Shown: positions 736 to 64,000 of the stretch, piece after piece | Position numbering within the stretch: position 1 is the stretch's first letter | How the letters are laid out: the number at the start of each line of letters is the position of its first letter | From: a virus | Lineage: Duplodnaviria; Caudoviricetes | Length of the DNA stretch: 64,000 nucleotides | Reading direction: 5' to 3' (one strand) | IMG/VR virus record: IMGVR_UViG_2636416120_000006 | Coordinates: 1 to 64,000 of that record | Position numbers and translations under genes: made by a program | Notes under the pieces: generated by a model | The model's input: the letters and a program-made list of their open reading frames with translations, nothing else | What the model was told of the DNA's origin: nothing | Databases searched by the model: none

Positions 736-754
736 TCCCTGAGAGGGACAAATG
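736..754 (+). promoter_or_regulatory. conserved RBS hairpin TCCC-TGAGA-GGGA-CAA-ATG (one of 20 copies)
   Basis: same geometry at 20 gene starts with covarying stems; see findings. Confidence 0.8.
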
Positions 755-2143
755 CAAATCGAGCGAGGGACGCTCCGCGACTATCAGGTCGCGGACCTCT
801 GTTTTTACATGCAGGAGGAGAAGAAGGGGAACCTGTCAGACCCAGGGACGGGTAAAACCCCCTCCGTCTGCGCCTACCTTTGGTATCTCTGGTCCGAATT
901 TGGCATCCGGTCCATGTGGCCGCAGCCGAAAAGCCTGCTCGAAAAGAACTACTGGGAGTTGTTGAAGTTCTCCGAGTTCGAGCCGGACGACATCGTCATC
1001 TTTGATGGAAACCCAAAGCAGCGCGCCGAGCTGATGGCCAAGCCGTACAAGGTCTGGCTTATGGGCTTCACCCGGTTCGCGGATGACTGGGCCAACCTCA
1101 TGGCGGCCCACCCCGGGTTCGATTGCGTCGCGGTCGACGAATTCCACATGGGCTTCGGGGGGTGGAAGAGCAAGCGGACCCAGCAGCTGGTGACCGCTTG
1201 CCGGCGGATGAAGCACTTCCTGCCCATGACCGGCACCCTGGTAGACGGTCGCCTCGACAGCGTCTACCCGGCGGTCCACATCATCGAGCCGCTCTACTAC
1301 GCGAGCTATGAGGCCTTCCTCTACCAGCACGAGGTGAAGGACTGGAACGGCAAGCGGATCGGCTGGACCGGGCACGAGAAGATCTCGGCCATCCTCGGCC
1401 GCCACTGCATCCGCCGGACCTTCGAGATGGTTTATGGCAAGCAGGAGGTGGTCACCCATGTCGAGCGCGTCGCGATGTCTCCGAAGCAGCGGGAGCTGTA
1501 CAAGGAGATGGAGAAGAACGCGCTGATCGAGCTCGAGGACGCGTTCCTCGAAGCGGGCTTCCCGGGCACTCACGTCATCCGTCTCCGTCAGCTGATGGAG
1601 CATCCGGAGGCGATGCCCCACCCTGTCACCGGCGATCCGGTGGACCTGATGAACGGCGAGGTGAACGGCAAGGACGAGCGCCTGTTGATCCACCTGACCG
1701 ACCACTGGAACAGCGGCAAGCCGCTGATCATCTTCGGCTCCCTGGTGAAGTCCCTCGAGCGCATGGCCAAGCTGGCCGAGTCCGTCGGGCTCCGGACTGG
1801 CCTGATCCATGGTGGTGTCTCCGCGGCGAAGCGCGCTGTCATCGACGAGCAGTTCCGAAACGGCGAGCTCGACGTGGTTGTATGTTCCCCTGCCACCGCT
1901 GCGGTCGGCTTCAACTGGGGCCACGTCGATCACATCATCTTCGCCTCGATCGACTACAAGGACACCAACTACGTGCAAGCTCGGGGCCGCGCTATCCGAG
2001 GCAAGCGCGAGAAGCCGCTCCGAGTGACGGTGCTCGAATACGAGAAGAGCATCGATCAACGCATCTTCCAGATTGTCGAGCAGAAGTCGAAGGACGCGAA
2101 GCTCGTCGACCCCACCCGCGAGCAACTCCAGCTCGCGAGTTAG
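752..2143 (+). CDS. SF2 (SNF2-like) DNA helicase
   Basis: PGTGKT Walker A, DEFH motif II, TGT motif III, GFNW and QARGRAIR C-terminal motifs. Confidence 0.9.
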   Translation: MQIERGTLRDYQVADLCFYMQEEKKGNLSDPGTGKTPSVCAYLWYLWSEFGIRSMWPQPKSLLEKNYWELLKFSEFEPDDIVIFDGNPKQRAELMAKPYKVWLMGFTRFADDWANLMAAHPGFDCVAVDEFHMGFGGWKSKRTQQLVTACRRMKHFLPMTGTLVDGRLDSVYPAVHIIEPLYYASYEAFLYQHEVKDWNGKRIGWTGHEKISAILGRHCIRRTFEMVYGKQEVVTHVERVAMSPKQRELYKEMEKNALIELEDAFLEAGFPGTHVIRLRQLMEHPEAMPHPVTGDPVDLMNGEVNGKDERLLIHLTDHWNSGKPLIIFGSLVKSLERMAKLAESVGLRTGLIHGGVSAAKRAVIDEQFRNGELDVVVCSPATAAVGFNWGHVDHIIFASIDYKDTNYVQARGRAIRGKREKPLRVTVLEYEKSIDQRIFQIVEQKSKDAKLVDPTREQLQLAS

Positions 2144-2258
2144 TCGGTTGATATCTACTTCTCAGATTACTTCTGGGAAACGGAGGGAGACCGACTATAT
2201 TGGCCATCGTACCTGAGTGGTACTGATGCAATGTGAACCCTGAACAAAGGATATATCT

Positions 2259-2924
2259 ATGGATATCAATGCTTCGATCGCCGCTGCCAAGGCCGCGGCT
2301 GGTGCTGCCGGTGCTGCTGCCGCCAACGTTCCGGCTGCAGTCGTCCACAACACCGGGGTCCCGGCGATGCCCGGCCGGCGCATGGGTCTCGACGACTTCC
2401 TGAACTCCGGCGGCCCGGCGGTCGACGGTTGGATCAAGATCGGCGAGTCCGGCATCTCGTTCGGCAACAACCTGACCCGCTTCAGCGGTCTGCGGTTCCG
2501 CCTGCAGGTCGCCGAGATCCGGTACTTCCAGGTGGTGTCGTTCGGCAACCCGGCGCAGTACCTGAAGACCGCCGACGGCGTGACCTGCGTCGAGGGCGGT
2601 TCGTGGGAGCAGGCCCTGGCCCGCGCCGGCGGCAAGCGCCCGTACGAGTCGGCCGAGCTCGTCTTCGAGCTGCTCGAGGATGCGGTCGACCCGAAGAGCA
2701 AGCAGGTGATCGCCGCGTCCGGCACCCGCTGGGGCTACTCGACGCCGTACAACGCGTCGCAGAAGTTCAAGAAGCTGCTGAGCGAGATCCACGCCCTCGG
2801 CATCGACCCGCGCACCGCGGACGTCGAGCTGAAGCTGGACGGCGAGCCGAAGGCCCGGAACGGCAACCAGTGGAAGGAGATCGTCTTCGAACTGGTCGGG
2901 CCGTACGCGGTCACGATCAACTAA
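2259..2924 (+). CDS. hypothetical protein, possibly ssDNA-binding or replication accessory
   Basis: strong codon bias, AGGA SD, followed by a terminator; function guessed only from position. Confidence 0.6.
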   Translation: MDINASIAAAKAAAGAAGAAAANVPAAVVHNTGVPAMPGRRMGLDDFLNSGGPAVDGWIKIGESGISFGNNLTRFSGLRFRLQVAEIRYFQVVSFGNPAQYLKTADGVTCVEGGSWEQALARAGGKRPYESAELVFELLEDAVDPKSKQVIAASGTRWGYSTPYNASQKFKKLLSEIHALGIDPRTADVELKLDGEPKARNGNQWKEIVFELVGPYAVTIN

Positions 2925-2930
2925 GACGAC

Positions 2931-2960
2931 GGGGCGGGCTTCGGCCCGCCCCTCTTCTTT
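2931..2960 (+). terminator. rho-independent terminator
   Basis: GGGGCGGGC-TTCG-GCCCGCCCC followed by TCTTCTTT. Confidence 0.8.
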
Positions 2961-2983
2961 CATCCCTGCGCGGGACCAATGCC

Positions 2984-3724
2984 GTGTTCACGATCTACGA
3001 CATGAACAACCATAGCCGGCGCAACTTCGAGCGCGGGCAGTCGGTCTCCACCATCTATCACATGATTAACCAGGATCCGAACCCGGTCATCCTGGTGTGG
3101 GATGGCCCCTTCGGCAATCAGCAGCGTCGCCGCTTGTTTCCCGGTTACAAGGGAAAGCGGAAGGGCATGATGGAGGACATGCGGGCGAGCCAGGAGCTCC
3201 TTCGGGAACTGCTGAAGCTGACCCGCCACACCACCATTCTGGTCCCCGAATTCGAAGCCGACGACGTGATCGCGGCGATCGTCCGACAGCTCGGATCCGA
3301 GCCTGTCCACATCCGCAGCAACGACATGGACTTCGCCCAGTTTCCCAACGTGAAACTGGACCGTGAGAAGATCCCCTGCGAACCCGAGTGGGTGCGCCTC
3401 TACAAGGTGACTGTCGGTGACGACAGTGACAGCATCCCAGGCATCAAGGGGTTCGGTGAGGGCAGCTGGCCCAAGCTCGACAAGCCAGGGTTCCAGGCTT
3501 TTCTCAATGGCCTCGGCAATGCTCCGGCTCTGGATGGTCTGGGGTTCTCCAAAGCTCAGCTGAGCTGGCTCGAGGAGCCTGAGAACCTCGAACTAATCCG
3601 GACCTTCTACCAGATCGTCGGCTTCCTCGACGTCCCCTCCGACCTGATCTCGAAGGGTACCACACCTGGTCGCCCCAACCCGGCGGCCGCCAACGAGATC
3701 CTCCGCCAATACCTACTCCCGTGA
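2984..3724 (+). CDS. 5'-3' exonuclease / flap endonuclease
   Basis: IYD, VWDG, RRRLFPGYK, EADDVI, SNDMD, GDDSDSIPGIKGFG motifs; probable GTG start at 2984. Confidence 0.9.
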   Translation: MFTIYDMNNHSRRNFERGQSVSTIYHMINQDPNPVILVWDGPFGNQQRRRLFPGYKGKRKGMMEDMRASQELLRELLKLTRHTTILVPEFEADDVIAAIVRQLGSEPVHIRSNDMDFAQFPNVKLDREKIPCEPEWVRLYKVTVGDDSDSIPGIKGFGEGSWPKLDKPGFQAFLNGLGNAPALDGLGFSKAQLSWLEEPENLELIRTFYQIVGFLDVPSDLISKGTTPGRPNPAAANEILRQYLLP

Positions 3725-3731
3725 GGAGCAA

Positions 3732-3974
3732 ATGCCGAAACCCGAGTTATCCGATGCCGTCTTCAAGTACGGCTACGACCTGGCCATCACCTATGGCTAC
3801 GACCTGAAGGAGATTGCCGAGGGCTTTGCCTATGGCCTCGGCAAGCTGACGACCGGCGCCTTCGCCGAGCAGGGTGTCGCCCTCGATCCCGCCCTCGTCG
3901 AGCCGATCGAGAAGGCCCTCCTCCAAGGCGTCAGGGACCACGCTCTGCGACTGGGGGTGCTCCTTGACCATTAA
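3732..3974 (+). CDS. hypothetical protein
   Basis: 80-aa ORF preceded by the RBS hairpin CTCC-CGTGA-GGAG. Confidence 0.75.
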   Translation: MPKPELSDAVFKYGYDLAITYGYDLKEIAEGFAYGLGKLTTGAFAEQGVALDPALVEPIEKALLQGVRDHALRLGVLLDH

Positions 3975-11202: not shown

Positions 11203-11285
11203 GTTCGAAGTTAATATCTACTCAACTTTGATCTGGGGCCAACAAGCCGTATCTCTTACCCAGCACCCAATCCCGCGAGGATCTA

Positions 11286-11648
11286 ATGCATTTATCGGAG
11301 CCTATGGAGGAGATGCTCCTCCAAGATCTTTCTCGTGGCAAGGACCCCCTCAGGGTCAGCAAGCTCTATGGCGTTCCTCTCCGCCTCGTTCGTGAGCTAG
11401 CCGCCAAGGTCGAGAACAAGCCAGTCGTCAACGACCGCCCGGACCTCGCCCAGTACGCGATCGCCTCCAAGCACGTCGACGCCCTGTGGCCGGTCAACGA
11501 CGTGATCCAGGCCGCGAAGGACGAGTACGACGCCGGCCTGGTCGAGATCGTGACTGGCCGCTCGGGCAGCACCCTCACCCTCTATCGGATCCCGCGGAAG
11601 CATCAGGACAAGAAGCGGATTCCCTACTTCTCGCGGTCGGAGGAGTGA
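11286..11648 (+). CDS. hypothetical protein with possible N-terminal HTH
   Basis: VSKLYGVPLRLVRELA resembles an HTH; preceded by operator and RBS hairpin. Confidence 0.65.
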   Translation: MHLSEPMEEMLLQDLSRGKDPLRVSKLYGVPLRLVRELAAKVENKPVVNDRPDLAQYAIASKHVDALWPVNDVIQAAKDEYDAGLVEIVTGRSGSTLTLYRIPRKHQDKKRIPYFSRSEE

Positions 11649-12220: not shown

Positions 12221-13095
12221 CCACCATCTCCGCCAAGGTCCTCGCCCACAGCGTGGCCGAGGGCTGCCCGCCCATCATCACGATGCAGCTGCGCTACCCG
12301 CGGGTGATCCACGCCGAGTTCATGACGCATCGGGTGTTCTCTCGGAACGCGTCGTCGAGCCGGGCCGTCCCCGTCCAGCGCCTGATCGAGGACGTCGAGC
12401 GGGATCCATACGTCCCGCTGCATTGGGGCAAGAACCAGCCCGGGATGCAGGCTCGGGAGGAGCACAACGAACCGGTCATGCTCTGGGCCCATGATGCGGA
12501 AGAACATCCGGATCCCTTCACCCGAGAGCAGGCGTGGCGAGAGGCCTGCCATGACATGGTGGAAATAGCACGCGCCTTCGCGAAGGCCGGCTACCACAAG
12601 CAGATCGTGAACCGGCTGCTCGAGCCCTTCTCGCACATCAACGTGGTTTGCACCGCAACCGATTGGAACAACTTCTACGCGCTGCGGCGACACGAGGACG
12701 CCGAGCCCCACATCAAGATGCTCGCCGATGCCATGTGGGAGGCCCAGCAGGCGAGCAAGCCGGTCGAACTGACCGAGGGCCAGTGGCACCTTCCCTACGT
12801 TACCGAACACGACTGGATCGAGATCAACGGTGGCGGCGTGGTCACGCTGGACCAGAAGATCGCCCTCCGGTTCATCTCGGCAGCTCGCTGCGCCCGGGTC
12901 TCGTACCTGACCCATGACGGTCGGCAGACCACCCTCGAGGAGGACCTGGCGCTCGCGCAGCGGCTCCTCGACTCCGGGCACATGTCGCCTTTCGAGCACC
13001 AGGCGATCCCCGATATGTTCTCTTTTCGTTCTTGCCAAAATTCCCCGAAATGGGGAAACTTCCGGCAATGGGTTCAGCACCGGCATATCCTGTGA
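12217..13095 (+). CDS. thyX: FAD-dependent thymidylate synthase
   Basis: EFMTHRVFSRNASSSRA, SAARCARVSY, HMSPFEH. Confidence 0.9.
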   Translation: MTTISAKVLAHSVAEGCPPIITMQLRYPRVIHAEFMTHRVFSRNASSSRAVPVQRLIEDVERDPYVPLHWGKNQPGMQAREEHNEPVMLWAHDAEEHPDPFTREQAWREACHDMVEIARAFAKAGYHKQIVNRLLEPFSHINVVCTATDWNNFYALRRHEDAEPHIKMLADAMWEAQQASKPVELTEGQWHLPYVTEHDWIEINGGGVVTLDQKIALRFISAARCARVSYLTHDGRQTTLEEDLALAQRLLDSGHMSPFEHQAIPDMFSFRSCQNSPKWGNFRQWVQHRHIL

Positions 13096-13103
13096 GGATT
13101 TTC

Positions 13104-13283
13104 ATGGAAGTCCCCTCGACCACCTTGGGCAACGCGATTGACGACGTTTCCCGCCTGTTAGCGGCCCTCAACCAAGCTATCGAGACGGCCGAAAATCTCG
13201 GCGTAGACATCTCCTTCGAGGAAGGCCGCAACCCCGAAACGGGGAACACCCGGCTCCAACTGAGCACGTCCATCATCCTGTGA
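13104..13283 (+). CDS. hypothetical protein
   Basis: 59-aa ORF between two RBS hairpins. Confidence 0.6.
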   Translation: MEVPSTTLGNAIDDVSRLLAALNQAIETAENLGVDISFEEGRNPETGNTRLQLSTSIIL

Positions 13284-13290
13284 GGATCAA

Positions 13291-13815
13291 ATGAGCGCCA
13301 TCTTAGTCACCAACTCCGGGAGGAGGCTCGACTTGCTCGACCCCCATCCGGACCAGATCGACATCAACGACATCGCCCTCGGTCTGTCCCGCGAAGGTCG
13401 GTTCTCCAACCAAGGGCGGTACTTCATCTCCGTCGCCCAGCACAGCGCTGACGGGGCGGTCGAGTTGCTGGAGCGCGGCGAGACCGAGAAGGCCAAGGCC
13501 TTCATCCTGCACGACGCCACCGAGGGCTACATCAAGGACATCATCCGTCCCTTGAAGAAAGAACTCGGCGCCCCCTACGAGGAGATCGAGGACCGGCTTT
13601 CCCGGGTGATCTTCGCCAAGTTTGGTGTCGATCATTCCCTGCTGGCTCAGATCAAGGACGTCGACGATGAGTGCGGCGCCAATGAGGCCGCCGCCCTGTT
13701 CGACGATCACCCGGCAGCTGCCCGCTCCAACAAGGTGATGCTGTCGTGGGATTTCCTCACACCCGAGGAAGCCCACGAGTACTACCTCGACGTGTTCGCC
13801 GAGGTGTTCGCATGA
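13291..13815 (+). CDS. HD-domain 5'-deoxynucleotidase-like protein
   Basis: RFS, SVAQHS, LHDATEGY..D...PLK motifs. Confidence 0.85.
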   Translation: MSAILVTNSGRRLDLLDPHPDQIDINDIALGLSREGRFSNQGRYFISVAQHSADGAVELLERGETEKAKAFILHDATEGYIKDIIRPLKKELGAPYEEIEDRLSRVIFAKFGVDHSLLAQIKDVDDECGANEAAALFDDHPAAARSNKVMLSWDFLTPEEAHEYYLDVFAEVFA

Positions 13816-14923: not shown

Positions 14924-14942
14924 CAAATCCCGTGGGGATCGA

Positions 14943-16916
14943 ATGCCTTCTGTTCGCTCAAACGTCGTCATGCGACGGACGTACAACCGTCCCAAAAATG
15001 AAGAAGGTACTGCCTTCGAGAGCCTGATCGAAACTGTGATCCGTGTCGGCCGCCACCAGGAGTGGTTATGGGAACGCGCCCAGGGGCGGCCTCTCTCGAC
15101 GGACCAGTACAAGGAGCTCTCCGACCTGATGAACCTGATGATGGAGCTCAAGGCTCTCCCGTCGGGCCGCACCCTCTGGCTGGGCGGCACGGATGTCGCC
15201 AAGACCCGAGAGGCCTCCCAGTTCAACTGCGCCTTCGCGCGCGTCGAGACCGTCCAGGACGTCAAGGACGCCTTCTGGCTCCTGCTGCAGGGCTGCGGCT
15301 ACGGCTTCGAGCCGATCACCGGCAACATCAACGGCTTCGCCCGGCGCCATCGCGTGACGATCGTTCCGTCGGCCGTGACCCGAGAGATGTGGGACGCCGG
15401 CCATCGGGGCGGCGAGCACACTCTGGAGCAGATCCACGACGACACCTGGCACATCATCGTCGGGGACAGCGCCGAGGGTTGGGTGAACGCGGTAGGGCTG
15501 CTGCTGACGGGCAAACACAACGTCGGCCGCCTGGTGCTGGACTTCTCGCAGATCCGCCCGGCCGGCATCCGTCTGCGCGGCTACGGCTGGATCTCGAGCG
15601 GCTACGGTCCGTTCTCGGAGGCGCTCGAGAAGATCGCCGAGATCATGTCCCACAAGCGCATGCAGCTGCTGAGCCGCATCGACCTGCTGGATATTCTCAA
15701 CCTGCTCGGCACCACCCTCTCCTCGCGCCGGTCGGCTGAGATCGCCTTGATCCCACACGGCGATCCAGAGTGGGAGGAGTTCGCGGTCGCGAAGAAGGAC
15801 CACTACGAAAAAGGCCTGAAGCACCGCGGCCAATCGAACAACACGGTGCTGTTCTTCCACAAGCCGTCGCGCGCCGCGCTAGTGGACTTCTTCCGGATCA
15901 TGAAGGAAGGCGGCGGCTCCGAGCCCGGCATCGCCAATGCCGAGGCTGCGAAGCGCCGGGCGCCGTGGTTCAAGGGCTTCAACCCGTGCGCCGAGATCCT
16001 GTTGGGCAACCGGTCCTTCTGCAACCTGGTCGAGAACAACCTGGGCGCCTGGAACGGCGACTGGGAGGGGTTGAAGCGGGCCCATTGGCTGATCGCCCGG
16101 GCCAACTACCGGCAGACCTGCGTGAACCTGTTGGACGGCATGCTGCAGTCCGGCTGGCACGAGCTGAACGAGTACCTGCATCTGTGCGGCGTGGGTGTCA
16201 CCGGCATCGTCCGTTGGGAGCACCACAAGTCCAGCGCGCACCGGAAGGACCTGCGCACGATCGCGCAGGAGGGCGCCAACAGCATGGCCGACGAGCTCGG
16301 TCTGCCGCGGCCCAAGGCGGTCACCACCATCAAGCCGTCCGGCACGCTCTCCAAGGTGATGGACACCACGGAGGGAGTTCATCGTCCGCTCGGGAGGTAC
16401 ATCCTCAACAACATCAAGTTCAGCAAGCACGACCCGCTGGTGCAGATGCTGGCCGAGGCCGGCTACCGCGTCTTCGATGATCCGTACACGGTCGACGGCG
16501 TGCTGGTCACCTTTCCCGTCTCCTATGAGGACGTCGAGTTCGACGTCGTCGACGGCAAGGAAGTGAACCTGGAGAGCGCCGTCGACCAGCTGGATCGCTA
16601 TCGGGACTGGATGGCCGACTATGTCGACCACAACTGCTCGATCACGATCTCCTACTCGGATGACGAGGTGCCGGCGATCATCGACTGGCTGCTGGAGAAC
16701 TGGGACAGCTACGTCGGCGTGTCCTTCATGTACCGCAATGACCCCACGAAGACGGCGGCCGACCTTGGCTACCCCTACCTGCCTCAGGAGGTCGTCACCA
16801 AGGAAGTGTTCGAGGCCTACACCTCAACCCTGCTGCCGATCGACATCGACGCCGGCAACAGCCTGTTCGAGCTCGACGAGAACGGCTGCTCCACCGGTGG
16901 TTGCCCCGTCAAATAA
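14943..16916 (+). CDS. nrdJ: class II (adenosylcobalamin-dependent) ribonucleotide reductase
   Basis: FNCAF, NPCAEI, FCNL, TTIKPSGT, C-terminal CSTGGCPVK; no small-subunit gene nearby. Confidence 0.9.
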   Translation: MPSVRSNVVMRRTYNRPKNEEGTAFESLIETVIRVGRHQEWLWERAQGRPLSTDQYKELSDLMNLMMELKALPSGRTLWLGGTDVAKTREASQFNCAFARVETVQDVKDAFWLLLQGCGYGFEPITGNINGFARRHRVTIVPSAVTREMWDAGHRGGEHTLEQIHDDTWHIIVGDSAEGWVNAVGLLLTGKHNVGRLVLDFSQIRPAGIRLRGYGWISSGYGPFSEALEKIAEIMSHKRMQLLSRIDLLDILNLLGTTLSSRRSAEIALIPHGDPEWEEFAVAKKDHYEKGLKHRGQSNNTVLFFHKPSRAALVDFFRIMKEGGGSEPGIANAEAAKRRAPWFKGFNPCAEILLGNRSFCNLVENNLGAWNGDWEGLKRAHWLIARANYRQTCVNLLDGMLQSGWHELNEYLHLCGVGVTGIVRWEHHKSSAHRKDLRTIAQEGANSMADELGLPRPKAVTTIKPSGTLSKVMDTTEGVHRPLGRYILNNIKFSKHDPLVQMLAEAGYRVFDDPYTVDGVLVTFPVSYEDVEFDVVDGKEVNLESAVDQLDRYRDWMADYVDHNCSITISYSDDEVPAIIDWLLENWDSYVGVSFMYRNDPTKTAADLGYPYLPQEVVTKEVFEAYTSTLLPIDIDAGNSLFELDENGCSTGGCPVK

Positions 16917-18107: not shown

Positions 18108-19255
18108 GCGAACACCGCCTCGGCGGCCGACCGCTCGTAGAAGCGACCACCCACGACAGCGAAGTCCCTCACGTCGATATACTCGGTCAGGACATGCTTC
18201 TTGACGGTGTCGACGTGCAGGAGGCCGAAGCCGTTGGTCCACTTTTCCCCGGTGGTGTACTCGGCCCAGCGGCGATGGCCGGCGCCGAACTGCGACCACT
18301 GGTAGGTGCCGAAGACCGGGCTGTAGTGGGTCTTGGCATGATAGCTGTGGTGGTGACCGTTCCAGCCAGGGAGACCCATGCGCTCGCCCTCGGGGAAGTG
18401 GCAGGCGGCCAGGCAGTCGTACCCGATCCAGAAGTTGCGCTTCAGCTCCTCCTTGATGTCGCCCTTGTGCTCAGCGGCAAGGTCCGTCCGGCTAATGTAG
18501 TTCACCCCAAACTCGTCCAAGCCCAGCAGCTTGGGGACGGTGAAGCCGTGAAGCTCGGCCAGGACCACCTGCATCTGCGGGCTCTGGTCGGCCAAGTGCC
18601 GTAGCAGACGGTACTCGTGGTTTCCTTCGATCCAGATGACCTCGGTATTGGGAGCGCGCTGGCGGATCGGGCCGAGGAAGTTGGTGTGCATCCAACGGAT
18701 GCGCTTGACGACGTCCCAGGTGCGAGGGTCGACGCTGTACTTCCCGAACTCCGGAAGGTCGAACCCGTCCCCGTTCAGAACCAGCTTATCAGGCTGAACC
18801 CTCTCCACGGTGTCGAGGAAGACCCTGAGCCAGAAGGGGTCGCACTCGATGTCGTGAATGTCGTTGCAGCCGAGGACCGTCTGCCAGCGGCCCGACGCCG
18901 GCATGAGATATTTATCCTCGTATCCAGCCTTCTCCTCGTTCATCGCCCGGTAGCGGTCCTTGGACGCGTGTCGGGCGATGTGAAGCTCCATGCGGTGCGC
19001 ACCGCGGTGCAGCTGGATCCCAGCCTGGCGCCGGAACTCCTCCATCGTGCCGAAGTACCGATCCCAGGTGGCATCGGAGATGATGGAGTTCTTCCGGAAG
19101 AACGTTCGCGTGACGAACTGGTCGGGGATCAACTCGGCCACCCGGCGGAGCTCGTCGACGCATTGCTGGGCCGTCCATTCCGGTCGGAAATTGTACCCGT
19201 GCTCGTCGCGGACATAGTTGTCCTGGACGACTCCGTTGATGATCTTTTTCGACAT
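18104..19255 (-). CDS. calcineurin-like metallophosphoesterase
   Basis: NDIHD, NGDGFD, GNHE, GHHH motifs. Confidence 0.85.
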   Translation of the reverse strand: MSKKIINGVVQDNYVRDEHGYNFRPEWTAQQCVDELRRVAELIPDQFVTRTFFRKNSIISDATWDRYFGTMEEFRRQAGIQLHRGAHRMELHIARHASKDRYRAMNEEKAGYEDKYLMPASGRWQTVLGCNDIHDIECDPFWLRVFLDTVERVQPDKLVLNGDGFDLPEFGKYSVDPRTWDVVKRIRWMHTNFLGPIRQRAPNTEVIWIEGNHEYRLLRHLADQSPQMQVVLAELHGFTVPKLLGLDEFGVNYISRTDLAAEHKGDIKEELKRNFWIGYDCLAACHFPEGERMGLPGWNGHHHSYHAKTHYSPVFGTYQWSQFGAGHRRWAEYTTGEKWTNGFGLLHVDTVKKHVLTEYIDVRDFAVVGGRFYERSAAEAVFA

Positions 19256-19280
19256 TAGTCCCTCGCAGGGATGTGGACGA

Positions 19281-20362: not shown

Positions 20363-20369
20363 TTGACCC

Positions 20370-47171: not shown

Positions 47172-48635
47172 TCACTTCTTCACAGCATTTGATTTGGAGG
47201 CGTTCTTGTCTTTCGGAGCGAGCGCCCGATCCATCGACGATATTCTGGACGGTCCGTCAGTGGCGCCGTCGGCCGGAGCTGGGCTCATGAAACCAGTGCC
47301 AGACAGCTCAGGGACGGCGTCCGGGCGGATCCGGTTGAACATCTCGATGTGGAAGTCGTCGTCCGAGATCAGGCCGTAGGACAGGAGCGTCAGGTAGCGG
47401 GCCTGCTTCTGGGTGAGGTGGGTCTCGAGCTCGAGGTCAGGACGCAGCTCGACGTTATCAAACCCCACGGTGACGATGCTCTCGGATCCAGTCAGGCGCA
47501 GGGCGAAGGTAAAGGCCTGGCTCAGCAGGTCGGCGACCGGACCGTTCAGCTGCTCGGCATTCCGGCTGAAGATCAGGGCTTCGACGGAGGCGGTGTTAAC
47601 ACCACTCTCGCCGCGGCCGATGACCGAGGACATGGTCTTCAGGGCCGCCTGGTTCTGAGCGTTGAGGGTCTCGATCACCTCCTTGATCTGGAGGCTCGCG
47701 CCAGGGTTCTTGTCGTTGAGGATCTTCGCTTCGACGGAGTCGTAGTGGATGAAGGCCTGATCCGGACGGCTCAGGCCGGAGATGACGCCCTGGAGCTCGG
47801 ACAGCCGGGCGTCCAGGAACTCCTTCATCTTGGTTTCGTTGGTCTTGCACTCCGGAGGGGCATTCTTCCGAAGCACCTCCTCCAGCACCGAGATTTCCAG
47901 GCGAGGGAAGCCCGTCACCTGCATGATCCGGTAGAGGGTGTTGATGACAGCCTGACGCGCGGCGATGGTGTTGATCGCGGCGGTGAAGGGACTGGTCGAG
48001 TAGATCGTGGTCGGGTCCTGCCGGTAGAAGGTCAGGAAGAAGCTCGGGAGGTCGAGCGAGATGCGCTCCGAGGACCCGGTCGGCACCTGCTCCGGGAAAT
48101 ACACGCCGGGCGACTTTTCGGTGAACTCGAGGGTGCCGGGATCCACCAGGCGGAGCTCGGTCGGCAGCAGGGTCTTGTCGACCACCAGCTCGGCCGCGCA
48201 CGCGCCGCGGATCAGGGCGAACCACCGCAGCTGCTCGCACAAGGCGACCAGAGACTTCTTGATGAGGAAGTTGGCCGGCTTGGTGTAGTCGGTGCGGGTC
48301 GTCAGCGAGAGGAGGATCTGCTGGAGGGTCTTGTGACCCTCGCGATCGATGTTCCCTTCGAGGTCGCGAACGTAGAAGTAGGGCTCGGTGTCGGCGGACG
48401 TCAGGTAGGCGTTTAGTGCCGCGCTGAGATCCGGGTCGACCTTGGCGAGCTGCTGAATGAGGGACTGGCTGTTGCCGGCCAGGCGGGTCGTGTAGATGTC
48501 GTCGAGGTGGTCGCGGTAGGCTGGCTTCGACAGAACGGCGGTGTTCGACGACGCATTATAGGTCGAAGTGAACGAACTGCCCTTATCACTCGTCCTCTTC
48601 TTTGGGAAGATGACGCTAAGAATGCCGCCGGCCAT
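47172..48635 (-). CDS. portal protein
   Basis: 487 aa between terminase and protease. Confidence 0.8.
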   Translation of the reverse strand: MAGGILSVIFPKKRTSDKGSSFTSTYNASSNTAVLSKPAYRDHLDDIYTTRLAGNSQSLIQQLAKVDPDLSAALNAYLTSADTEPYFYVRDLEGNIDREGHKTLQQILLSLTTRTDYTKPANFLIKKSLVALCEQLRWFALIRGACAAELVVDKTLLPTELRLVDPGTLEFTEKSPGVYFPEQVPTGSSERISLDLPSFFLTFYRQDPTTIYSTSPFTAAINTIAARQAVINTLYRIMQVTGFPRLEISVLEEVLRKNAPPECKTNETKMKEFLDARLSELQGVISGLSRPDQAFIHYDSVEAKILNDKNPGASLQIKEVIETLNAQNQAALKTMSSVIGRGESGVNTASVEALIFSRNAEQLNGPVADLLSQAFTFALRLTGSESIVTVGFDNVELRPDLELETHLTQKQARYLTLLSYGLISDDDFHIEMFNRIRPDAVPELSGTGFMSPAPADGATDGPSRISSMDRALAPKDKNASKSNAVKK

Positions 48636-48663
48636 ACATTAGATCCTCGCAGGATTAAGGCTA

Positions 48664-50648: not shown

Positions 50649-50837
50649 GCATTTGCTCCACGCAGGAGTGAGACGTCCTATATACGGTGGTCAGCCACTG
50701 TTTTGAAGGTATTTCTACAGTACATGCGAACTAGATCTGCGGCCTGATGAGTACATATCAACCTACCAAATTCGGTCTTTCTGAATTTCGATCCACCCCC
50801 TACATATGCCCCAACAAATTCATCCCATGAGGATCTA

Positions 50838-51308
50838 ATGCAGCCATACGACTACTATCCGAAGCTGGACGGGCTGAACATTGTGCTCGGGTTCGTCGGT
50901 GACGACCCGGTTGGGTATCTGGAGGGACCGAACTGCCCCTATGACGAGGTGACGAAGGCTGCACTGCGGGGTCTTGTCACGAATGTGAACCACCATCCGA
51001 TCGGGGTAACGGACGCAGAGGTCGAGAAGCTCGACATCGAGAGCGAGGCGATCGCGCTCTACCAGGAGACCAAGGAGTTCCGGGCCCGCGCCCAGAGCAG
51101 CGGCGAGGTCGGTGACCAGGCCGCGGCCCTGCGTGTGGCCAACTCTCTGCTGGAAAAGCTGCTCAACATCCGCGAGCGGGCTCACAACCTCAAGGAGAAC
51201 GTCGCCTGGAAGAAGAAGATCCTCCAGTTCATTGAGGACGTCCTCGACGACGAACAGAGGATCGAGTTCGACAATCGTCTGGCGGCTGAAATCGAGGTGG
51301 CACGATGA
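50838..51308 (+). CDS. hypothetical helical protein (candidate terminase small subunit)
   Basis: 156 aa, divergent from terL; function is a guess. Confidence 0.6.
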   Translation: MQPYDYYPKLDGLNIVLGFVGDDPVGYLEGPNCPYDEVTKAALRGLVTNVNHHPIGVTDAEVEKLDIESEAIALYQETKEFRARAQSSGEVGDQAAALRVANSLLEKLLNIRERAHNLKENVAWKKKILQFIEDVLDDEQRIEFDNRLAAEIEVAR

Positions 51309-55407: not shown

Positions 55408-55416
55408 AGGGGTGAA

Positions 55417-57396: not shown

Positions 57397-57599
57397 AAGG
57401 AGGTGAGCTAGGTTCTCTAGGCGACTCTTATTACCCACCGCCCCGTCGCGAGCTAGACCGACGGGGCCTGCCCAAGGCTTGACATGAACACGCGTGGTTT
57501 ACCCCGGCTGGTCGCTCCAGCCGGGGTTTTCGCGTTGCCATCCAGGCCCAGAGTGCCGCTCTGGGCCTGGATGGCAATACGATTCCCGAGGAGGAACCA

Positions 57600-57677
57600 A
57601 TGTATGTGATCGCTTATGGAATGGTGATGCTGACCCTCGCGCTCGGAGTGATCATGTCGCTTCTGGTGGTGGGTTAG
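57600..57677 (+). CDS. 25-aa hydrophobic peptide
   Basis: GAGGAGG SD within the hairpin motif; MYVIAYGMVMLTLALGVIMSLLVVG. Confidence 0.55.
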   Translation: MYVIAYGMVMLTLALGVIMSLLVVG

Positions 57678-59119: not shown

Positions 59120-59304
59120 CTCGCCGACCCTCCCCGCTACCTGCGTAGCCCAGCCGCCTCCCCCGCCCTCAGCGGGCTTCTAAACGCGATAGAGGCGCGC
59201 AAGCAGAAACACTATTGCCGAGGTTGATACCAACCACATTTGCACTCAACCCCGCCCCCGCCCACACTCCCCCCGAGACCACAACCCATCCCTGAGAGGG
59301 ACAA

Positions 59305-59646
59305 ATGCAAATCGCCAGCATCAGCGGCCTCGACAACGATGTGCTTCGTTTCTCCTTCACCAACGGTTCCACATTGGAACTGCGGGACACCGGTCAGTCG
59401 TGCTGCGAATCCCGCTACATGACCTGTGACGACGACCTCAAGCCCATCATCGGCGCCACCCTGCTCGGGTGGGAGATCCGCGACGTCACCTACGATGGTG
59501 ACGACTACGACGTTCACGAGATCCAGTTCCTGGTCGTGAACACCTCCCAGGGCTCCTTCACCGTCGCCAACCACAACGAGCACAACGGCTACTACGGCGG
59601 CTTCTCGATCGAGGAGCAGTGGACCCACCCTGCAACCCATCCCTGA
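59305..59646 (+). CDS. hypothetical protein
   Basis: 113 aa with QSCCE and NGYYGG; preceded by operator, promoter and RBS hairpin. Confidence 0.8.
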   Translation: MQIASISGLDNDVLRFSFTNGSTLELRDTGQSCCESRYMTCDDDLKPIIGATLLGWEIRDVTYDGDDYDVHEIQFLVVNTSQGSFTVANHNEHNGYYGGFSIEEQWTHPATHP

Positions 59647-59655
59647 GAGGGACAA

Positions 59656-60048
59656 ATGACCCAGCTGATCACCACCGCCCAGATCAAGGCGGCGAACCTG
59701 GCCGCCATCGAGAACCAGACTCTCGCGGCCATCAAGCCCAACTTCGACAACACCGGCCGGTGCAGCTACCTCGCCGGCTGCGCCATCAGTGTCGCCATGT
59801 CACCCGAGACCCTCTCGGTCATCCGCGAGGAGCGCTCCGACGGCGAGAACATTCGTGAGCTCGTTGATATGGGCGTCGTGTCCGTCGAGGACACCACGCT
59901 CGCCTACCGGCTGCAGGGCCTCCACGACAAGCTCGCCCTCAGCGGGTTCATCGACGACTGGACCATCGCGTGGTTCCGCGCCCTTGCCCCCTACGAGGGC
60001 CAGCGCATCACGATCGAGCACTACCGGTCCGTGATCGAGGCGCTCTGA
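59656..60048 (+). CDS. hypothetical protein
   Basis: RBS hairpin; CSY..GCAI...LQGLHD. Confidence 0.8.
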   Translation: MTQLITTAQIKAANLAAIENQTLAAIKPNFDNTGRCSYLAGCAISVAMSPETLSVIREERSDGENIRELVDMGVVSVEDTTLAYRLQGLHDKLALSGFIDDWTIAWFRALAPYEGQRITIEHYRSVIEAL

Positions 60049-60201
60049 ATGCGTGACACCCTCGACGACGCCATCAACCACGCCAAGGCCCATCCAGCGC
60101 CTTACACCTGGTACGTCTACGAGACGCCGTCGGGCAAATTCATCATCAGCGACTACCCGCCCACGTCCTGGCCCAGTTTCATACACAGGGCCACGATCTA
60201 A
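60049..60201 (+). CDS. hypothetical protein (50 aa)
   Basis: MRDTLDDAINHAKAH..., fills the gap between neighbours, GAGG upstream; read manually. Confidence 0.55.
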   Translation: MRDTLDDAINHAKAHPAPYTWYVYETPSGKFIISDYPPTSWPSFIHRATI

Positions 60202-60217
60202 TTCCCGCGAGGAACCA

Positions 60218-60583
60218 ATGACCCAGTTCAAGCACACTCCCGAAGAGGCCCGCACCAAGTGGGTCGAGGCCCTCCGCTCCGGCGAATACCAGCAGGGCAA
60301 GCACCAGCTGCGCGACGGCGACGGTTTCTGCTGCCTCGGCGTGGCCTGCGATCTGTTCGCCAAACTCGAGGGGATCGGCGAGTGGGACAACGGCCACTTC
60401 AAGATCCAGCACGAGCGCGAATTCGGCGTCCTGCTCACGCCCGTGCGCACCTGGCTCGGCCTCCAGAGCAACACCGGGGACATCAACCCGACCAAGTGCC
60501 TCACCTCCCTCAACGACCGCGGCTACTCCTTCGCGGAGCTCGCCGACGTGATCGAGGAGAAGCCGGGAGACCTGATCGCATGA
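60218..60583 (+). CDS. hypothetical phage protein
   Basis: KWVEALRSGEYQQG...FCCLGVACD...LND..SFAELADVIE; RBS hairpin. Confidence 0.85.
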   Translation: MTQFKHTPEEARTKWVEALRSGEYQQGKHQLRDGDGFCCLGVACDLFAKLEGIGEWDNGHFKIQHEREFGVLLTPVRTWLGLQSNTGDINPTKCLTSLNDRGYSFAELADVIEEKPGDLIA

Positions 60584-62277: not shown

Positions 62278-62668
62278 ACTCCCGCGCGTGCTGCAACTCG
62301 CCGACCCCGTCCAGACACCACCCTGGTCAGGGTGTCACAGCCTCGACCCCGGCCTGCCCCGGATGCTGGCAGCGGATGGAGATTTGCTCGACCAGTTGGT
62401 CGAGCCCGGAGCCGCGACGTTGCAGGTTCACGCCCGTCGAATCGCCTGGTTCATCGTCAACGGATGGCACCAGCCGATCCACGTTGATGTCGGTGTCCCT
62501 TCCCTCGGCTTCACACCACGATGGCCGATCGAGGACGGCAACCACCGTCTCTATGCCGCGAAGCTCCGCGGCGACACCCACATTCTGGTGACGATCTCCG
62601 GTTCCGTTGACCTGGCAGCGGAGCTGTTCGGCGTCACTGCCGACGTGATCATCGAACAGGACCCCTAA
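62261..62668 (+). CDS. ParB/Srx N-terminal-like domain protein
   Basis: GW.QPI.V...IEDGNHRLYAA..G. Confidence 0.7.
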   Translation: MPLRVELPRVLQLADPVQTPPWSGCHSLDPGLPRMLAADGDLLDQLVEPGAATLQVHARRIAWFIVNGWHQPIHVDVGVPSLGFTPRWPIEDGNHRLYAAKLRGDTHILVTISGSVDLAAELFGVTADVIIEQDP

Positions 62669-62842
62669 GACCAGTCAAGTCCCCGCCCTGATCCACAACC
62701 TCACCCTGGGCGGGGTGTTGACTCGTCTCCCATCGCGACGACGCGGAACCACTCTCGAACAAACACGGGAGCCGCGGCGGGGACCGTCTGGGCAGTTTGA
62801 TGCCGGCGAACGCCGGTCAGCCCCACCAGCACGAGCCAACCA

Positions 62843-63280
62843 CTAGCGACCATCATACCAGCGCCAACCTTGCCACTGCTTCCAATACGGTGCATCAAAC
62901 CGTGGTCGGAGCTTGCCCAAGTAAACGTTCGCGTTGCACGACCCGCGCCCTCTAACTATTACGTCAGCCGGATCAAAGAGATCGGCGTGCTTGCGGATGA
63001 ACAGAGACAGATTCTTGAACCTATAGACGGTTCCATCTGGACTGAGCAGGGACCACTCACGAGCAGCGAAGTGTGTCTCGAAAGGACCTGCGATCGGCGA
63101 GCAGTGGACGGCCTCGAGACGCTTCTGATCGTTCGGAGTCGACACTCGTGAACGCCGTTTGAGCTCGTTTATGCAGGCACGACGCCCGCAGGTTTTCTTT
63201 GGGCGCGTCCAATGTTGGATAAACTGCACCTGCTTCCCACAAATCAAGCATGTCACGTCGAAGGTGTACTTCGTAGCCAT
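62843..63280 (-). CDS. zinc-finger / NUMOD-like hypothetical protein
   Basis: CLICG...CGRRAC, LLSPDGTVYRFKNLSLF, WQGW; opposite strand to neighbours. Confidence 0.6.
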   Translation of the reverse strand: MATKYTFDVTCLICGKQVQFIQHWTRPKKTCGRRACINELKRRSRVSTPNDQKRLEAVHCSPIAGPFETHFAAREWSLLSPDGTVYRFKNLSLFIRKHADLFDPADVIVRGRGSCNANVYLGKLRPRFDAPYWKQWQGWRWYDGR

Positions 63281-63338
63281 GCCCTAAATCTAGCACGAAC
63301 AACTTCGTGTTCGACAACCCCATTCCCGAGAGGAACCA

Positions 63339-63488
63339 ATGTCTCGCACCGAGCGCCGCACCCTGGCGCGGCGGCTGATCCGCCGTGCCCAGGTCCTGAA
63401 GGACCTCGCCCTCACCACCCGGAACCACACCCTCTTCAACGACGTCCGGGCCTTGCGCAACCAGGCCGCGAAAATTCTGGCCGGTTGA
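63339..63488 (+). CDS. 49-aa arginine-rich protein
   Basis: RBS hairpin then MSRTERRTLARRLIRRAQVLKDLAL..., read manually. Confidence 0.7.
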   Translation: MSRTERRTLARRLIRRAQVLKDLALTTRNHTLFNDVRALRNQAAKILAG

Positions 63489-63558
63489 TATCTACCCCGT
63501 TTGCCCCGTGGCCGGACTCCGGTCATCTTCCACTTCGACACATCCCTGAGAGGGACCA

Positions 63559-64000
63559 ATGCAGATCCACCTGACCATCCTCGTCAACCCGGATCCTATG
63601 GCCCAGAGGATTCCCGACATCAAGACGCTGCGGGAGATCACGGGCTTCGGCCTCAAGCACTCCAAGGACATGATCGAGGGCGTCGCCTACGACGTCATCC
63701 TCTCGGTCACCCAGCTCAATGAGCTCCTGGTCGCCTTCCCCAACCGGATCCGCATCGGCGAGCCGGTCCACGACCAGTTCGAGCACTACGAAGTCGATAG
63801 GAGCGATGAGCATCCCACCGACGTCGTTCTCCATATGGATCACGACAAGCACTGGGACGCTCTCCACACCTTGAGCATCCGTCCCGAGCGCATGATCACC
63901 GGTGTTCGGCTCTCCCGCGACCGCGCCATCGAGATCCTCGGCCAGATCGCCATCGACGGCATCGTGCTTCCGTCGATCGCCAGAGCCATCAATCCCAACG
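63559..64000 (+). CDS. protein with ribosomal L7/L12 C-terminal-like motif (runs off window)
   Basis: RBS hairpin; IKTLREITGFGLKHSKDMIE resembles bL12 IKxVRExTGLGLKEAKDLVE. Confidence 0.7.
   Translation, partial: MQIHLTILVNPDPMAQRIPDIKTLREITGFGLKHSKDMIEGVAYDVILSVTQLNELLVAFPNRIRIGEPVHDQFEHYEVDRSDEHPTDVVLHMDHDKHWDALHTLSIRPERMITGVRLSRDRAIEILGQIAIDGIVLPSIARAINPN

Follow-up and report, generated by a model that had tools for sequence, protein, structure and literature searches.

A covarying hairpin over the ribosome-binding site of about 35 prophage genes, possibly a gate on translation initiation in cis

A small hairpin with the consensus A-[NNCC]-[YGNGA]-[GGNN]-C-N-A-ATG stands at a fixed spacing of 3 nt before ATG at about 35 genes of a single prophage, and all 35 copies lie within that one element, which measures 83 kb (C1:31716-115131), has 53-bp att repeats at its ends and carries an integrase and a tRNA-Arg. 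A sequence-only reading had listed 20 copies in the window, the whole stretch of DNA analysed here (64,000 nt, positions 1 to 64,000 of IMGVR_UViG_2636416120_000006; positions below are those of the window unless marked C1), so the observation is confirmed and larger than first listed. Position, orientation, phage specificity, covariation, usable Shine-Dalgarno (SD) spacing and a bias in gene junctions are established. As to function, we give roughly even chances to the hairpin gating the ribosome-binding site in cis at the level of mRNA, as the prophage's standard cassette of ~20-23 nt.

The strict pattern CCYGNGAGGNNCNAATG matches 12 times in the window against 0.01 expected from shuffles (at most one match in any of 100) and 22 times in the 6.93-Mb assembly, with all 22 inside C1:31861-112557, none in the remaining 6.8 Mb of the genome and none anywhere in the assembly for the reversed pattern used as control. 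A covariance-model search (E<=10) placed 35 of its 38 matches in the prophage; 20 are in the window, every one of them already listed, and 15 further copies lie in the same prophage outside it. For a test of pairing, the core pattern CC-YGNGR-GG was searched in the prophage region and in the rest of the genome. Both outer pairs are complementary in 30 of 41 prophage matches and NNN-ATG then follows in 25 of these 30, as compared to 0/11 for the non-complementary prophage cores, while elsewhere 92 of 1045 are complementary and ATG comes next in 0/92. Together with an orientation that agrees with the downstream ORF in 35/35 copies, this bears out the claim of a gene-oriented element tied to start codons, and the scan against background shows it to be phage-specific. 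Only 0 or 1 match each was seen in 43 genomes of the same family, and the element is absent from five relatives examined whole.

The edges of the motif are sharp (about -20 to +2/+3 relative to ATG) and its flanks bear no similarity. A G-poor, C/A-rich run ending in a conserved A precedes the stem. The 5' arm resembles an anti-Shine-Dalgarno sequence (UCCC, UUCC, AUCC, CUCC); the 3' arm is GGNN and the SD (GAGG) is therefore divided equally between loop and stem, and the loop is purine-rich on the sense strand at 35/35 sites. Six stem types occur (TCCC 17, TTCC 7, ATCC 7, CTCC 2, ACCC 1, TCTC 1), grouped by region of the prophage. In the covariation test 98.4% of cells were paired and both sides had changed in 26 cells; since the two rows that looked unpaired refold as TCCC/GGGA stems with 4-nt loops, all 35 sites have four perfect pairs (0/140 stem cells unpaired). 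The observed pairing score was reached in 0/500 shuffles and pairing falls to 21-67% when the partner is slid by +/-1-3 columns. Base pairing of the stem is thus under selection, and the earlier contention that it covaries beyond what SD conservation demands stands. Fourteen copies are identical apart from position -2, which suggests recent copying and therefore reduces the 26 changes to ~5 independent compensatory events. The fold itself is weak, with predicted free energies of -2.0 to -5.3 kcal/mol at 37 C (median -5.0) and -3.2 to -7.2 kcal/mol at 25 C, and its stability does not exceed that of shuffles (z -1.1 to +0.6), so the hairpins may do little to hold up a ribosome. Unpaired bases are also strongly conserved at several positions (A-17 29/34, Y-12 34/34, G-11 31/34, C-3 32/34, A-1 31/34), for which neither SD pairing nor the bare fold accounts. 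At five sites (the portal and tail fibre genes; C1 97708, 103398 and 35429) AAT(G/C) is kept at its fixed position although the true start codon is found 2-5 nt downstream.

All 20 sites in the window have the stems, loops and spacing first described, apart from a 4-nt spacer at 13087, a TTG/ATG start 4-7 nt on at 21310 and a 6-nt loop at 57583, the last of these already noted in that reading, and the targets then named hold, as SNF2 helicase, class II RNR, lysozyme, portal and tail fibre. TCCC-TGAGA-GGGA, caa, ATG (735..754, +) opens the SNF2 helicase gene (752-2143) and is followed by TCCC-TGCGC-GGGA, cca, ATG (2962..2986, +) at the 5'-3' exonuclease gene (2984-3724), whose in-frame start is a GTG 5 nt past the hairpin's ATG, and by CTCC-CGTGA-GGAG, caa, ATG (3715..3734, +) at an 80-aa gene, the loop here holding the exonuclease TGA stop. 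ATCC stems then prevail: ATCC-CGCGA-GGAT, cta, ATG before a 120-aa gene (11269..11288, +), with a palindromic box (11210-11221) ~50 nt upstream; ATCC-TGTGA-GGAT, a 4-nt spacer and ATG before a 59-aa ORF (13086..13106, +; a weak covariance-model match, E 6.9), the loop containing the TGA that ends the thymidylate synthase (Thy1) gene; ATCC-TGTGA-GGAT, caa, ATG before a 174-aa dNMP phosphatase-like gene (13274..13293, +), again with the upstream stop within the loop; and ATCC-CGTGG-GGAT, cga, ATG before the class II ribonucleotide reductase gene (14926..14945, +). A 383-aa metallophosphatase-like gene has TCCC-TGCGA-GGGA, cta, ATG (19253..19272, -), the phage lysozyme gene ACCC-TGTGA-GGGT, caa, ATG with the upstream stop within the loop (20360..20379, -), and a GapR-like 171-aa gene TTCC-TGCGA-GGAA, ccga, TTG/ATG (21309..21332, +). 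At the 1558-aa tail fibre gene (degenerate TCTC-TGCTG-GAGA, cta; 27363..27386, -) and the portal gene (ATCC-TGCGA-GGAT, cta; 48633..48656, -) the hairpin's ATG is out of frame and the real one lies 4 nt past it. CTCC-TGCGT-GGAG, caa, ATG (50650..50669, -) belongs to the large terminase gene, so labelled from tblastn relatives carrying that annotation, and ATCC-CATGA-GGAT, cta, ATG (50821..50840, +) to a divergent 156-aa gene, the first in the primase operon. The variant with the 6-nt loop, TTCC-CGAGGA-GGAA, cca, ATG (57582..57602, +; covariance-model E 0.72), precedes an ORF of only 25 codons. TCCC-TGAGA-GGGA, caa, ATG recurs at a 113-aa DUF7448 gene (59288..59307, +) and at a 130-aa gene (59639..59658, +), where the last codons of the upstream gene are His-Pro-TGA, its TGA falling within the loop. 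TTCC-CGCGA-GGAA, cca, ATG (60201..60220, +) serves a 121-aa gene, a phrog_18067 paralogue, and TTCC-CGAGA-GGAA, cca, ATG (63322..63341, +) a 49-aa arginine-rich microprotein. The last, TCCC-TGAGA-GGGA, cca, ATG (63542..63561, +), leads into a 155-aa early gene, one segment of which resembles the C-terminal domain of L7/L12; a palindromic box (63484-63495) stands ~50 nt upstream of this hairpin.

Within the hairpin GAGG falls at -9..-6, the host 16S rRNA 3' end reads ...CACCUCCUUUCU and most host SD 4-mers begin between -13 and -10; the SD in the hairpin is at usable spacing. Using rough gene calls made for the purpose (118 genes), we find the motif at 1/49 genes that either overlap their upstream neighbour or follow it by no more than 2 nt and at 30/69 of the remaining genes, including 14/22 with 3-35-nt gaps (Fisher p = 8e-8), i.e. 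it is nearly absent from overlapping genes and common where ribosomes start afresh. The upstream gene's TGA lies within the loop at at least eight sites, and at C1 98510 the entire motif sits inside upstream coding sequence with an ATGA overlap. A phage-only palindromic box and, as judged by eye, -35/-10-like hexamers are found 40-60 nt upstream at four sites (C1 43736, 96009, 101153 and 105630); should these be promoters, transcription would place the hairpin in the mRNA leader. That capsid, decoration and major tail genes have ordinary open SDs holds for the major head gene (AAGGAG, no hairpin), whereas the 'decoration' and 'major tail' labels found no confirmation by family.

In a gate acting in cis, the weak 4-5-bp hairpin would control access to the SD and impose a single defined local fold on each of these start sites regardless of the neighbouring gene. 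Initiation might thereby be damped to a moderate level suited to enzymes and low-copy virion proteins, with strong open SDs left to high-copy genes, the major head gene for example. A ribosome terminating at an upstream stop codon placed within the loop or immediately ahead of it could melt the hairpin and so couple translation of the two genes. Folding in vivo and an effect on initiation, be it lowering or coupling, are inferred, and given the weak predicted free energies we propose a gate rather than a lock. The weak stems, the conserved unpaired bases, the kept AAT(G/C) and the near-identical copies are points against such a gate, and the unpaired bases may leave room for an additional, sequence-specific reader.

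A trans-acting reader is in fact the serious rival to a cis gate: a phage- or host-encoded RNA-binding factor that recognises the hairpin and its conserved unpaired bases and switches the ~35 genes together, off or on. The unpaired bases exceed what an SD needs, AATG is retained even where it is not the start, stems this weak are seen in operators stabilised by protein, the GNGA of the loop fits GNRA with Y as a possible partner for the leading G of the 3' arm, and the element is absent from the host. Precedents exist in T4, where the sites bound by RegA coincide with the AUG or immediately precede it and a hairpin adjoining the ribosome-binding site is the operator for gp43 (PMC3014915). However, a Pfam scan of 70 proteins gave no RNA-binding family, CsrA was searched for without success, and early, replication, lysis and late genes all figure among the targets, which is not the make-up of a simple temporal regulon; a search for RegA (PF01818) gave no match, but its control likewise matched in no genome. 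A speculative candidate reader is the arginine-rich microprotein (63339..63488, +), an orphan ORF of 49 aa with an arginine-rich N-terminus that lies beside an early box behind its own copy of the motif, yet it has neither a homologue nor a Pfam match and composition is its only link to such a role. To our minds the translational operator put forward in the sequence-only reading, whose interpretation is partly supported overall, is a tentative possibility.

It seems improbable that the motif is a DNA-level cassette linker, a 20-nt homology patch of stop, ribosome-binding site and start for in-frame gene swap, duplication or insertion, whose abundance would reflect copying rather than expression control. 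Its sharp bounds between dissimilar flanks, the 14 nearly identical copies and the regional clustering of stem types would suit a linker, as would tandem paralogues separated by the motif (two phrog_18067 genes have it), the C-terminal His-Pro-stop that it dictates to upstream genes and the PeSL cassettes that drive modular shuffling in T4-type phages (PMC2839356). Recombination needs identity, though, not within-strand complementarity, and here five stem variants are all compensated; moreover ~20 nt is short for homologous exchange, and the embedded SD and fixed 3-nt distance to ATG already imply a role in expression. Linker and cis gate could both hold. We regard it as very unlikely that the hairpin marks polycistronic mRNA for cleavage by an endoribonuclease or shields the SD from an SD-targeting nuclease. 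The conserved C-A that directly precedes the stem might offer a context for cleavage, and T4 RegB cuts GGAG in SDs and is hindered by secondary structure (PMC3014915), but endoribonuclease families were not detected (the sole RNase-type match being a Rv2179c-like DEDD exonuclease domain) and processing alone leaves the fixed ATG spacing unexplained. Hardly any credence goes to a site read in DNA, be it a palindrome bound as operator by a dimeric protein or a promoter of the phage from which leaderless mRNAs start at ATG. While the motif is an inverted repeat and its span from about -20 to +3 has the size of a single-subunit RNA-polymerase promoter, arms that vary yet stay complementary are expected of a folded strand rather than a protein-read half-site. 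The strand-specific purines of the loop and the well-placed SD also speak against it, RNA-polymerase families are lacking among the scanned proteins, and a separate phage-only palindromic box is already present upstream at four sites. Chance or plain SD conservation, for which nothing speaks but the GAGG in the motif, is refuted by the match counts in window, prophage and family genomes, and neither shuffle nor slide controls attain the observed pairing.

Lambda boxB has a ~5-bp stem with a purine-rich, GNRA-like loop and an arginine-rich small protein (N) encoded nearby; a genome has one or two copies of boxB, within the nut sites that follow early promoters, and their role is in transcription antitermination. 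The present element shares the small stem, the GNRA-like loop and the nearby arginine-rich small protein but has 35 copies fixed at start codons instead of one or two, and homology to N was not found here. The T4 operators are also phage RNA sites at or adjoining the ribosome-binding site; RegA controls initiation of many mRNAs from operators among which a 'lack of clear sequence...' is remarked on in the review, and that of gp43 includes a small hairpin, albeit as a single autoregulatory site rather than 35 (PMC3014915). PeSL cassettes, described as repeated intergenic stem-loops with SD and start that flank accessory genes and can serve as recombination linkers, are ~100 bp long with a promoter and a stem-loop of terminator strength, unlike the promoterless ~20 nt and weak SD-containing stem seen here (PMC2839356).

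Of the described elements that we are aware of, the nearest are the start-associated sequences (SAS) found in mycobacteriophages of cluster K (Pope et al. 2011, PMC3203893), whose function was still unverified according to a 2025 survey (PMC12699233). The statement that ours is not recognised as a described element is to be qualified by this described analogue, whose sequence is unrelated (the SAS consensus with <=2 mismatches gives 1 window match against ~2 expected). Both are short, asymmetric, oriented repeats in many copies per phage genome, placed few bases before a mostly ATG start codon, with the SD core inside, complementary outer parts (GGG...CCC in SAS), sometimes an upstream stop codon within and a host genome essentially devoid of copies (PMC3203893). 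A SAS-like 26-bp repeat of different sequence occurs in 8 copies in Citrobacter myophage Mordin, with neither hairpin nor covariation reported for it (PMC4611695). SAS, as described, is a fixed sequence of Mycobacterium phages confined to the non-structural arm; in contrast, the present element, from a high-GC bacterium with phage relatives in Alphaproteobacteria, has a stem that varies and covaries (six types), a spacing fixed at 3 nt and copies that also precede the late terminase, portal and tail fibre genes.

Our findings that the motif (a 4-bp stem, usually a 5-nt YGNGA loop and a 3-nt C-N-A spacer ahead of ATG) occurs in 35 copies of fixed geometry, and that its stem changes yet stays paired, suggest it is RNA folding, and not a mere sequence word, that is under selection. 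All 20 sites listed in the sequence-only reading proved to be as described there, and the same 20 make up the window's share of the 35 copies that a weight matrix and a covariance model, trained on 34 aligned copies, retrieve from C1, the contig of the host draft genome that carries the prophage (window, C1:32467-96466). The other 15 lie beyond the window, one at C1 31859 and the rest between 96503 and 113747, and all 35 are co-oriented with their genes. The consensus from clear copies reads C/A-rich run, A, NNCC, YGNGA, GGNN, C, N, A, ATG, with an information profile sharply limited to -20 to +2 (nt relative to ATG) between dissimilar flanks; loops measure 5 nt in 32 copies, 4 nt in two (C1 103398, 113747) and 6 nt in one (C1 90049), and the spacer to the start is 3 nt in most. 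A relaxed motif search also gave false positives (e.g. C1 44312, 50142 and 65219), which are not in the 35-copy list.

The covariation claimed for the two arms withstood closer scrutiny. In the 34-site alignment, 98.4% of the cells at the four stem pairs are paired, and in 26 of them both partners have changed. No column shuffle out of 500 attains the observed covariation, and when the 3' partner is shifted by 1-3 columns, only 21-67% stay paired. Two rows that looked like mismatched ATCC/GGGA stems (C1 103398 and 113747) refold as TCCC/GGGA with 4-nt loops, so that four Watson-Crick pairs form in 35/35 copies. Stem types are unevenly represented (TCCC 17, TTCC 7, ATCC 7, CTCC 2, ACCC 1, TCTC 1) and grouped by region, and fourteen copies are identical save position -2. 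Hence, independent compensatory events number about five, rather than 26. Together with the complete lack of single-sided breaks among 140 stem cells, these five compensated changes argue for selection on pairing.

Chance is excluded as an explanation. The strict pattern has 12 occurrences in the window, where 0.01 are expected, and 22 in the whole genome, always within the prophage and never outside, with no match for a reversed control; among 43 other genomes of the same family it is found once in six and is absent from 37. With the loose core CC-YGNGR-GG, both outer pairs are complementary in 30 of 41 prophage occurrences, and the tie to start codons holds, since NNN-ATG follows 25 of these 30 as opposed to none of the 11 non-complementary cores. 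Over the other 6.8 Mb, 92 of 1045 cores are complementary, with ATG after none of them. Five complementary cores in the prophage lack ATG at +3: three are start-associated with a shifted start (C1 45553, 53776, 97708) and two are orphans (C1 91425 and, on the minus strand, C1 43822). A covariance-model search of the whole genome, which scored 150 of 802 first-look candidates, gave 38 matches at E<=10: 35 fall in the prophage and three, all weak, outside it (E 0.15-7.9). Since the model is bound to match the copies it was trained on, what carries weight is how little it finds outside the prophage. Rfam models at gathering scores over 90 kb identified one tRNA and nothing else, and at E<=10 gave no relevant match in a 1.1-kb stretch with three copies.

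The host genome is a 6.93-Mb draft in 1186 contigs (97% complete), and the G+C content of C1 falls to about 61% between roughly 29 and 116 kb from about 70% on both sides, as in the remaining genome. This low-G+C stretch is flanked by 53-bp direct repeats (attL/attR, C1 31716-31768 and 115079-115131), the right one inside a tRNA-Arg(ACG) gene and adjoined by genes for a tyrosine integrase and an HTH_17 excisionase-like protein, and a Cro/CI-type HTH gene sits at the left end of the prophage. It follows that the window covers the greater part of a temperate prophage about 83.4 kb long. Relatives of its terminase and portal (44-54% identity) are found in Caulobacter phage Seuss, Achromobacter phage JWF and Alphaproteobacteria prophages or MAG contigs. 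Best portal identities reach at most 54% in viral contigs and 51% in genome contigs, the best helicase identity among relatives is 38%, and the nearest portals in a large protein database (P0002, P0003) are 69% identical. Seuss, the nearest named relative, differs from the prophage: its genome is linear, has terminal repeats of 1748 bp and carries no integrase annotation. When hairpins before ATG were tabulated by loop and spacer length, the prophage had 26 in the 5-nt loop, 3-nt spacer cell, and no such spike was found in five whole relatives with portal identities of 44-52% (Seuss and the IMG/VR contigs G045, G046, G047 and G049), which hold at most 3-5 per cell. The exact 19-mer of the motif gave two single matches in viral contigs (one in an unrelated 47%-GC phage with that copy alone), none in genome contigs and seven single matches in metagenome contigs, counts that fit chance.

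Seuss (NC_047757.1) has a repeat of its own, the perfect palindrome TTTACC-N2-3-GGTAAA in about eight copies (e.g. record positions 68951, 76135, 84120, 84918), two of them in the terminal repeat. It encloses the SD (Shine-Dalgarno sequence) at four early gene starts, including that of rIIA, and elsewhere is reversed or distant from starts. It is thus more like, and probably is, a DNA operator.

Genes that carry the motif span much of the phage programme. By family they include an SNF2 helicase, a 5'-3' exonuclease, a class II ribonucleotide reductase, a metallophosphatase, a phage lysozyme and a GapR-like protein, next to genes for a dNMP phosphatase-like, an rIIA-like, an rIIB-like and a cREC receiver-domain protein, the Cro/CI-type and excisionase-like HTH genes, many small early ORFs without assigned function and, among late genes confirmed by family or relatives, the portal, a 1558-aa tail fibre and the large terminase. 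As the sequence-only reading had it, the major head gene has an open AAGGAG and no motif; the 131-aa and 258-aa genes that it named decoration and major tail do have open SDs, albeit the names themselves found no confirmation. The cREC, rIIA-like (GHKL ATPase) and rIIB-like genes follow each other at C1 108332-111824, and the motif copies that link them hold the upstream stop in their loops. Two phrog_18067 paralogues (function unassigned), each after a TTCC-type hairpin, lie at window 60218-60583 and at 53-451 of L115 (the C1 stretch right of the window) and belong to a tandem array of small early genes. Elsewhere, window 6046-7074 encodes a 342-aa protein with the C-terminal part alone of a family A DNA polymerase domain (profile positions 210-379 of 381).

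Where the motif sits relative to gene junctions is far from random. Using our own rough gene calls (118 genes, with 4 of the 35 sites outside called genes), it precedes only one of 49 genes in overlap with, or at most 2 nt from, their upstream neighbour, compared with 30 of the remaining 69 (Fisher p = 8e-8): 14/22 with 3-35-nt gaps, 12/36 with longer gaps and 4/10 that are divergent or first. Thus, the motif is the usual start signal of this phage where ribosomes cannot carry over from an overlapping gene. Of 31 assigned motif genes, 30 start with ATG; among the other 87 genes, 62 do. At no fewer than eight of the 35 sites the TGA of the upstream gene falls inside the loop, at offset +4 (TGA-GA) or +6 (NG-TGA), so that the motif sets the C-termini of these upstream proteins (e.g. 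His-Pro-stop), and several further upstream stops lie 11-16 nt before the stem. An upstream stop in or beside the structure, as coupling through an SD-masking hairpin would have it, is hence seen at a subset of sites, the remaining ones being first in an operon or after long gaps. At C1 98510 the entire motif lies within the upstream coding sequence, with an ATGA overlap.

Some sites keep the canonical ATG or ATC out of frame, with the true ATG 4 nt further on. These are the portal, the tail fibre and C1 97708, and the ATG-N-ATG or start-stop arrangements are located at window 27363-27369 and 48633-48639 and at C1 97724-97730 and 103414-103421. In the copy at C1 103398, the canonical ATG is followed immediately by a TGA that overlaps the true ATG, a minimal start-stop. 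Since it is kept even out of frame, AAT(G) at its fixed distance behaves as part of the element.

The anatomy of the hairpin places the SD (GAGG) at -9 to -6, split evenly between the loop and the 3' arm. Judged from the end of the host 16S rRNA (...GGAUCACCUCCUUUCU) and from 390 long host ORFs, in which SD-like 4-mers mostly begin at -13 to -10, the motif SD is therefore usable, albeit on the short-spacing side. In sequence, the 5' arms UCCC, UUCC, AUCC and CUCC are close to the anti-SD. A U in the first loop position can pair with the final loop A to give 5 bp and a GNG triloop. The alternative fold proposed earlier, a bulged C with a GNGA tetraloop closed by Y-G, stands as a possible second register and could account for loop position 1 always being a pyrimidine (34/34). 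Computed free energies range from -2.0 to -5.3 kcal/mol at 37 C and from -3.2 to -7.2 at 25 C, and predicted stability at 37 C is not above that of shuffled sequence. For comparison, RNA thermometers of the fourU or ROSE type are defined by SD pairing that comes apart across physiological temperatures. Between 29 and 32 of the 34 copies keep each of the unpaired bases A-17, G-11, C-3 and A-1, which neither SD pairing nor the bare fold accounts for.

A second element, the 12-bp palindromic box GT-W-R-ATATC-W-AC, occurs five times in the prophage (window 2147-2158, 11210-11221 and 63484-63495; C1 101095 and 105569) and nowhere else in the genome. Downstream of four boxes, within about 60 nt, come -35/-10-like hexamers and after them a hairpin gene. 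When window 56000-64000 was scanned with an E. coli-type consensus, no promoter-like sites appeared, so the putative promoters beside the boxes are read from hexamers picked out by eye. The box is probably an operator of an early promoter class, and we infer that the hairpin is located in the 5' leader of the mRNA.

Taken together, the observation behind the earlier interpretation is confirmed and the interpretation itself partly so: very probably, the element acts at the RNA level in translation initiation. How it might do so divides our opinion about evenly between one favoured reading, a cis-acting gate on the ribosome-binding site, and everything else. The anti-SD-like arm would hold the SD in a single weak, standard fold, which would insulate and damp initiation, and a ribosome terminating in the loop would open the site for the next gene. 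The main rival, which we consider possible at clearly lower odds, is a trans-acting reader that recognises the hairpin, and it owes this place mostly to the conserved unpaired bases. No RNA-binding family was found among 70 proteins searched against Pfam and twenty against PHROGs (about 49 called genes lay outside the scan), and CsrA was not found in the 97%-complete genome, whose motif GGA lies in the 3' arm rather than in the loop, unlike in CsrA/Rsm targets. RegA (PF01818) had no match in the genome, in a search that likewise matched none of 14 control genomes. On its composition, a candidate reader is a 49-aa orphan microprotein (window 63339-63488), the second most basic phage protein by net charge, with an arginine-rich N-terminus, its own motif copy in front and an early box just after; a search of 5.8 billion proteins found no homologue of it, nor does it match a Pfam family. 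A switch in which this or another small phage protein binds GNRA-like hairpins at ribosome-binding sites, by analogy to lambda boxB/N, is a speculative version that we consider unlikely; if true, it would turn some 35 genes on or off together, its own included, at the lysogeny/lytic switch. Lambda itself has one or two nut sites after early promoters as opposed to 35 sites fixed at start codons here, and an N-family protein, whereas the arginine-rich microprotein of this phage shows no homology to N and matches no Pfam family.

Two more small ORFs rich in arginine are located at C1 112224-112388 and window 57238-57396. Two stretches of about 600-670 nt are without a convincing gene call: window 57397-57981, which contains the 6-nt-loop variant before a 25-codon ORF and a strong terminator-like hairpin (57801-57826), and window 62669-63338, directly upstream of the microprotein gene. 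Downstream of that gene, an early 155-aa protein (window 63559-64000, on to C1 96492) has a 27-residue segment resembling the C-terminal domain of L7/L12, the part that contacts translation factors. The match is weak (Pfam 25.3 bits against a cut-off of 25.9), all 13 of its weak PDB matches are L7/L12, and its single-sequence fold has a mean pLDDT of 36.6.

The motif may also serve as a recombination linker, a role that could coexist with the cis gate or a trans reader and that we regard as improbable. An RNA processing or protection signal seems quite unlikely; the sole RNase-type match among the scanned proteins is an Rv2179c-like DEDD exonuclease domain. Least of all do we expect a DNA-level site, given compensated stem changes that argue for pairing.

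At about 20 nt, the motif is a compact system, testable by mutation, for asking how translation is standardised, damped or coupled in phages with mosaic genomes, and it would supply high-GC hosts with a ready-made part for ribosome binding. Should the motif have a dedicated reader, this would represent a new kind of phage-wide translational switch.

Searches of literature outside subscription journals and supplementary files brought up neither this motif nor a covarying family of ribosome-site hairpins in phages of this group. The statement that this is not a described element nonetheless needs amending, as the start-associated sequences (SAS) of cluster K mycobacteriophages are the closest described kind, albeit unrelated in sequence. 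SAS, known since 2011, are a 13-bp oriented repeat found 11-19 times per genome at a distance of 3-7 bp from start codons, most of them ATG; in it AGGAG is flanked by GGG...CCC, and it is absent from the host and of no known function (PMC3203893). A later paper has their function still unverified in 2025 (PMC12699233), and a 26-bp SAS-like repeat receives mention in Citrobacter phage Mordin (PMC4611695). Our motif shares with SAS the many oriented copies per genome (35 versus 11-19), the distance of a few nt from a mostly ATG start and the near-absence from the host (no strict and three weak model matches outside the prophage). It differs in sequence (the SAS consensus GGGATAGGAGCCC has one window match at up to two mismatches, 1.99 being expected), in host group, in preceding terminase, portal and tail fibre genes while SAS keep to the non-structural arm, and in adding a covarying stem and fixed 3-nt spacing. 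For SAS-type repeats, which lack an established mechanism, the prophage motif provides a clean example in another lineage of bacteria. It belongs to a known but unexplained kind of element, within which its sequence, covarying stem and fixed spacing set it apart.
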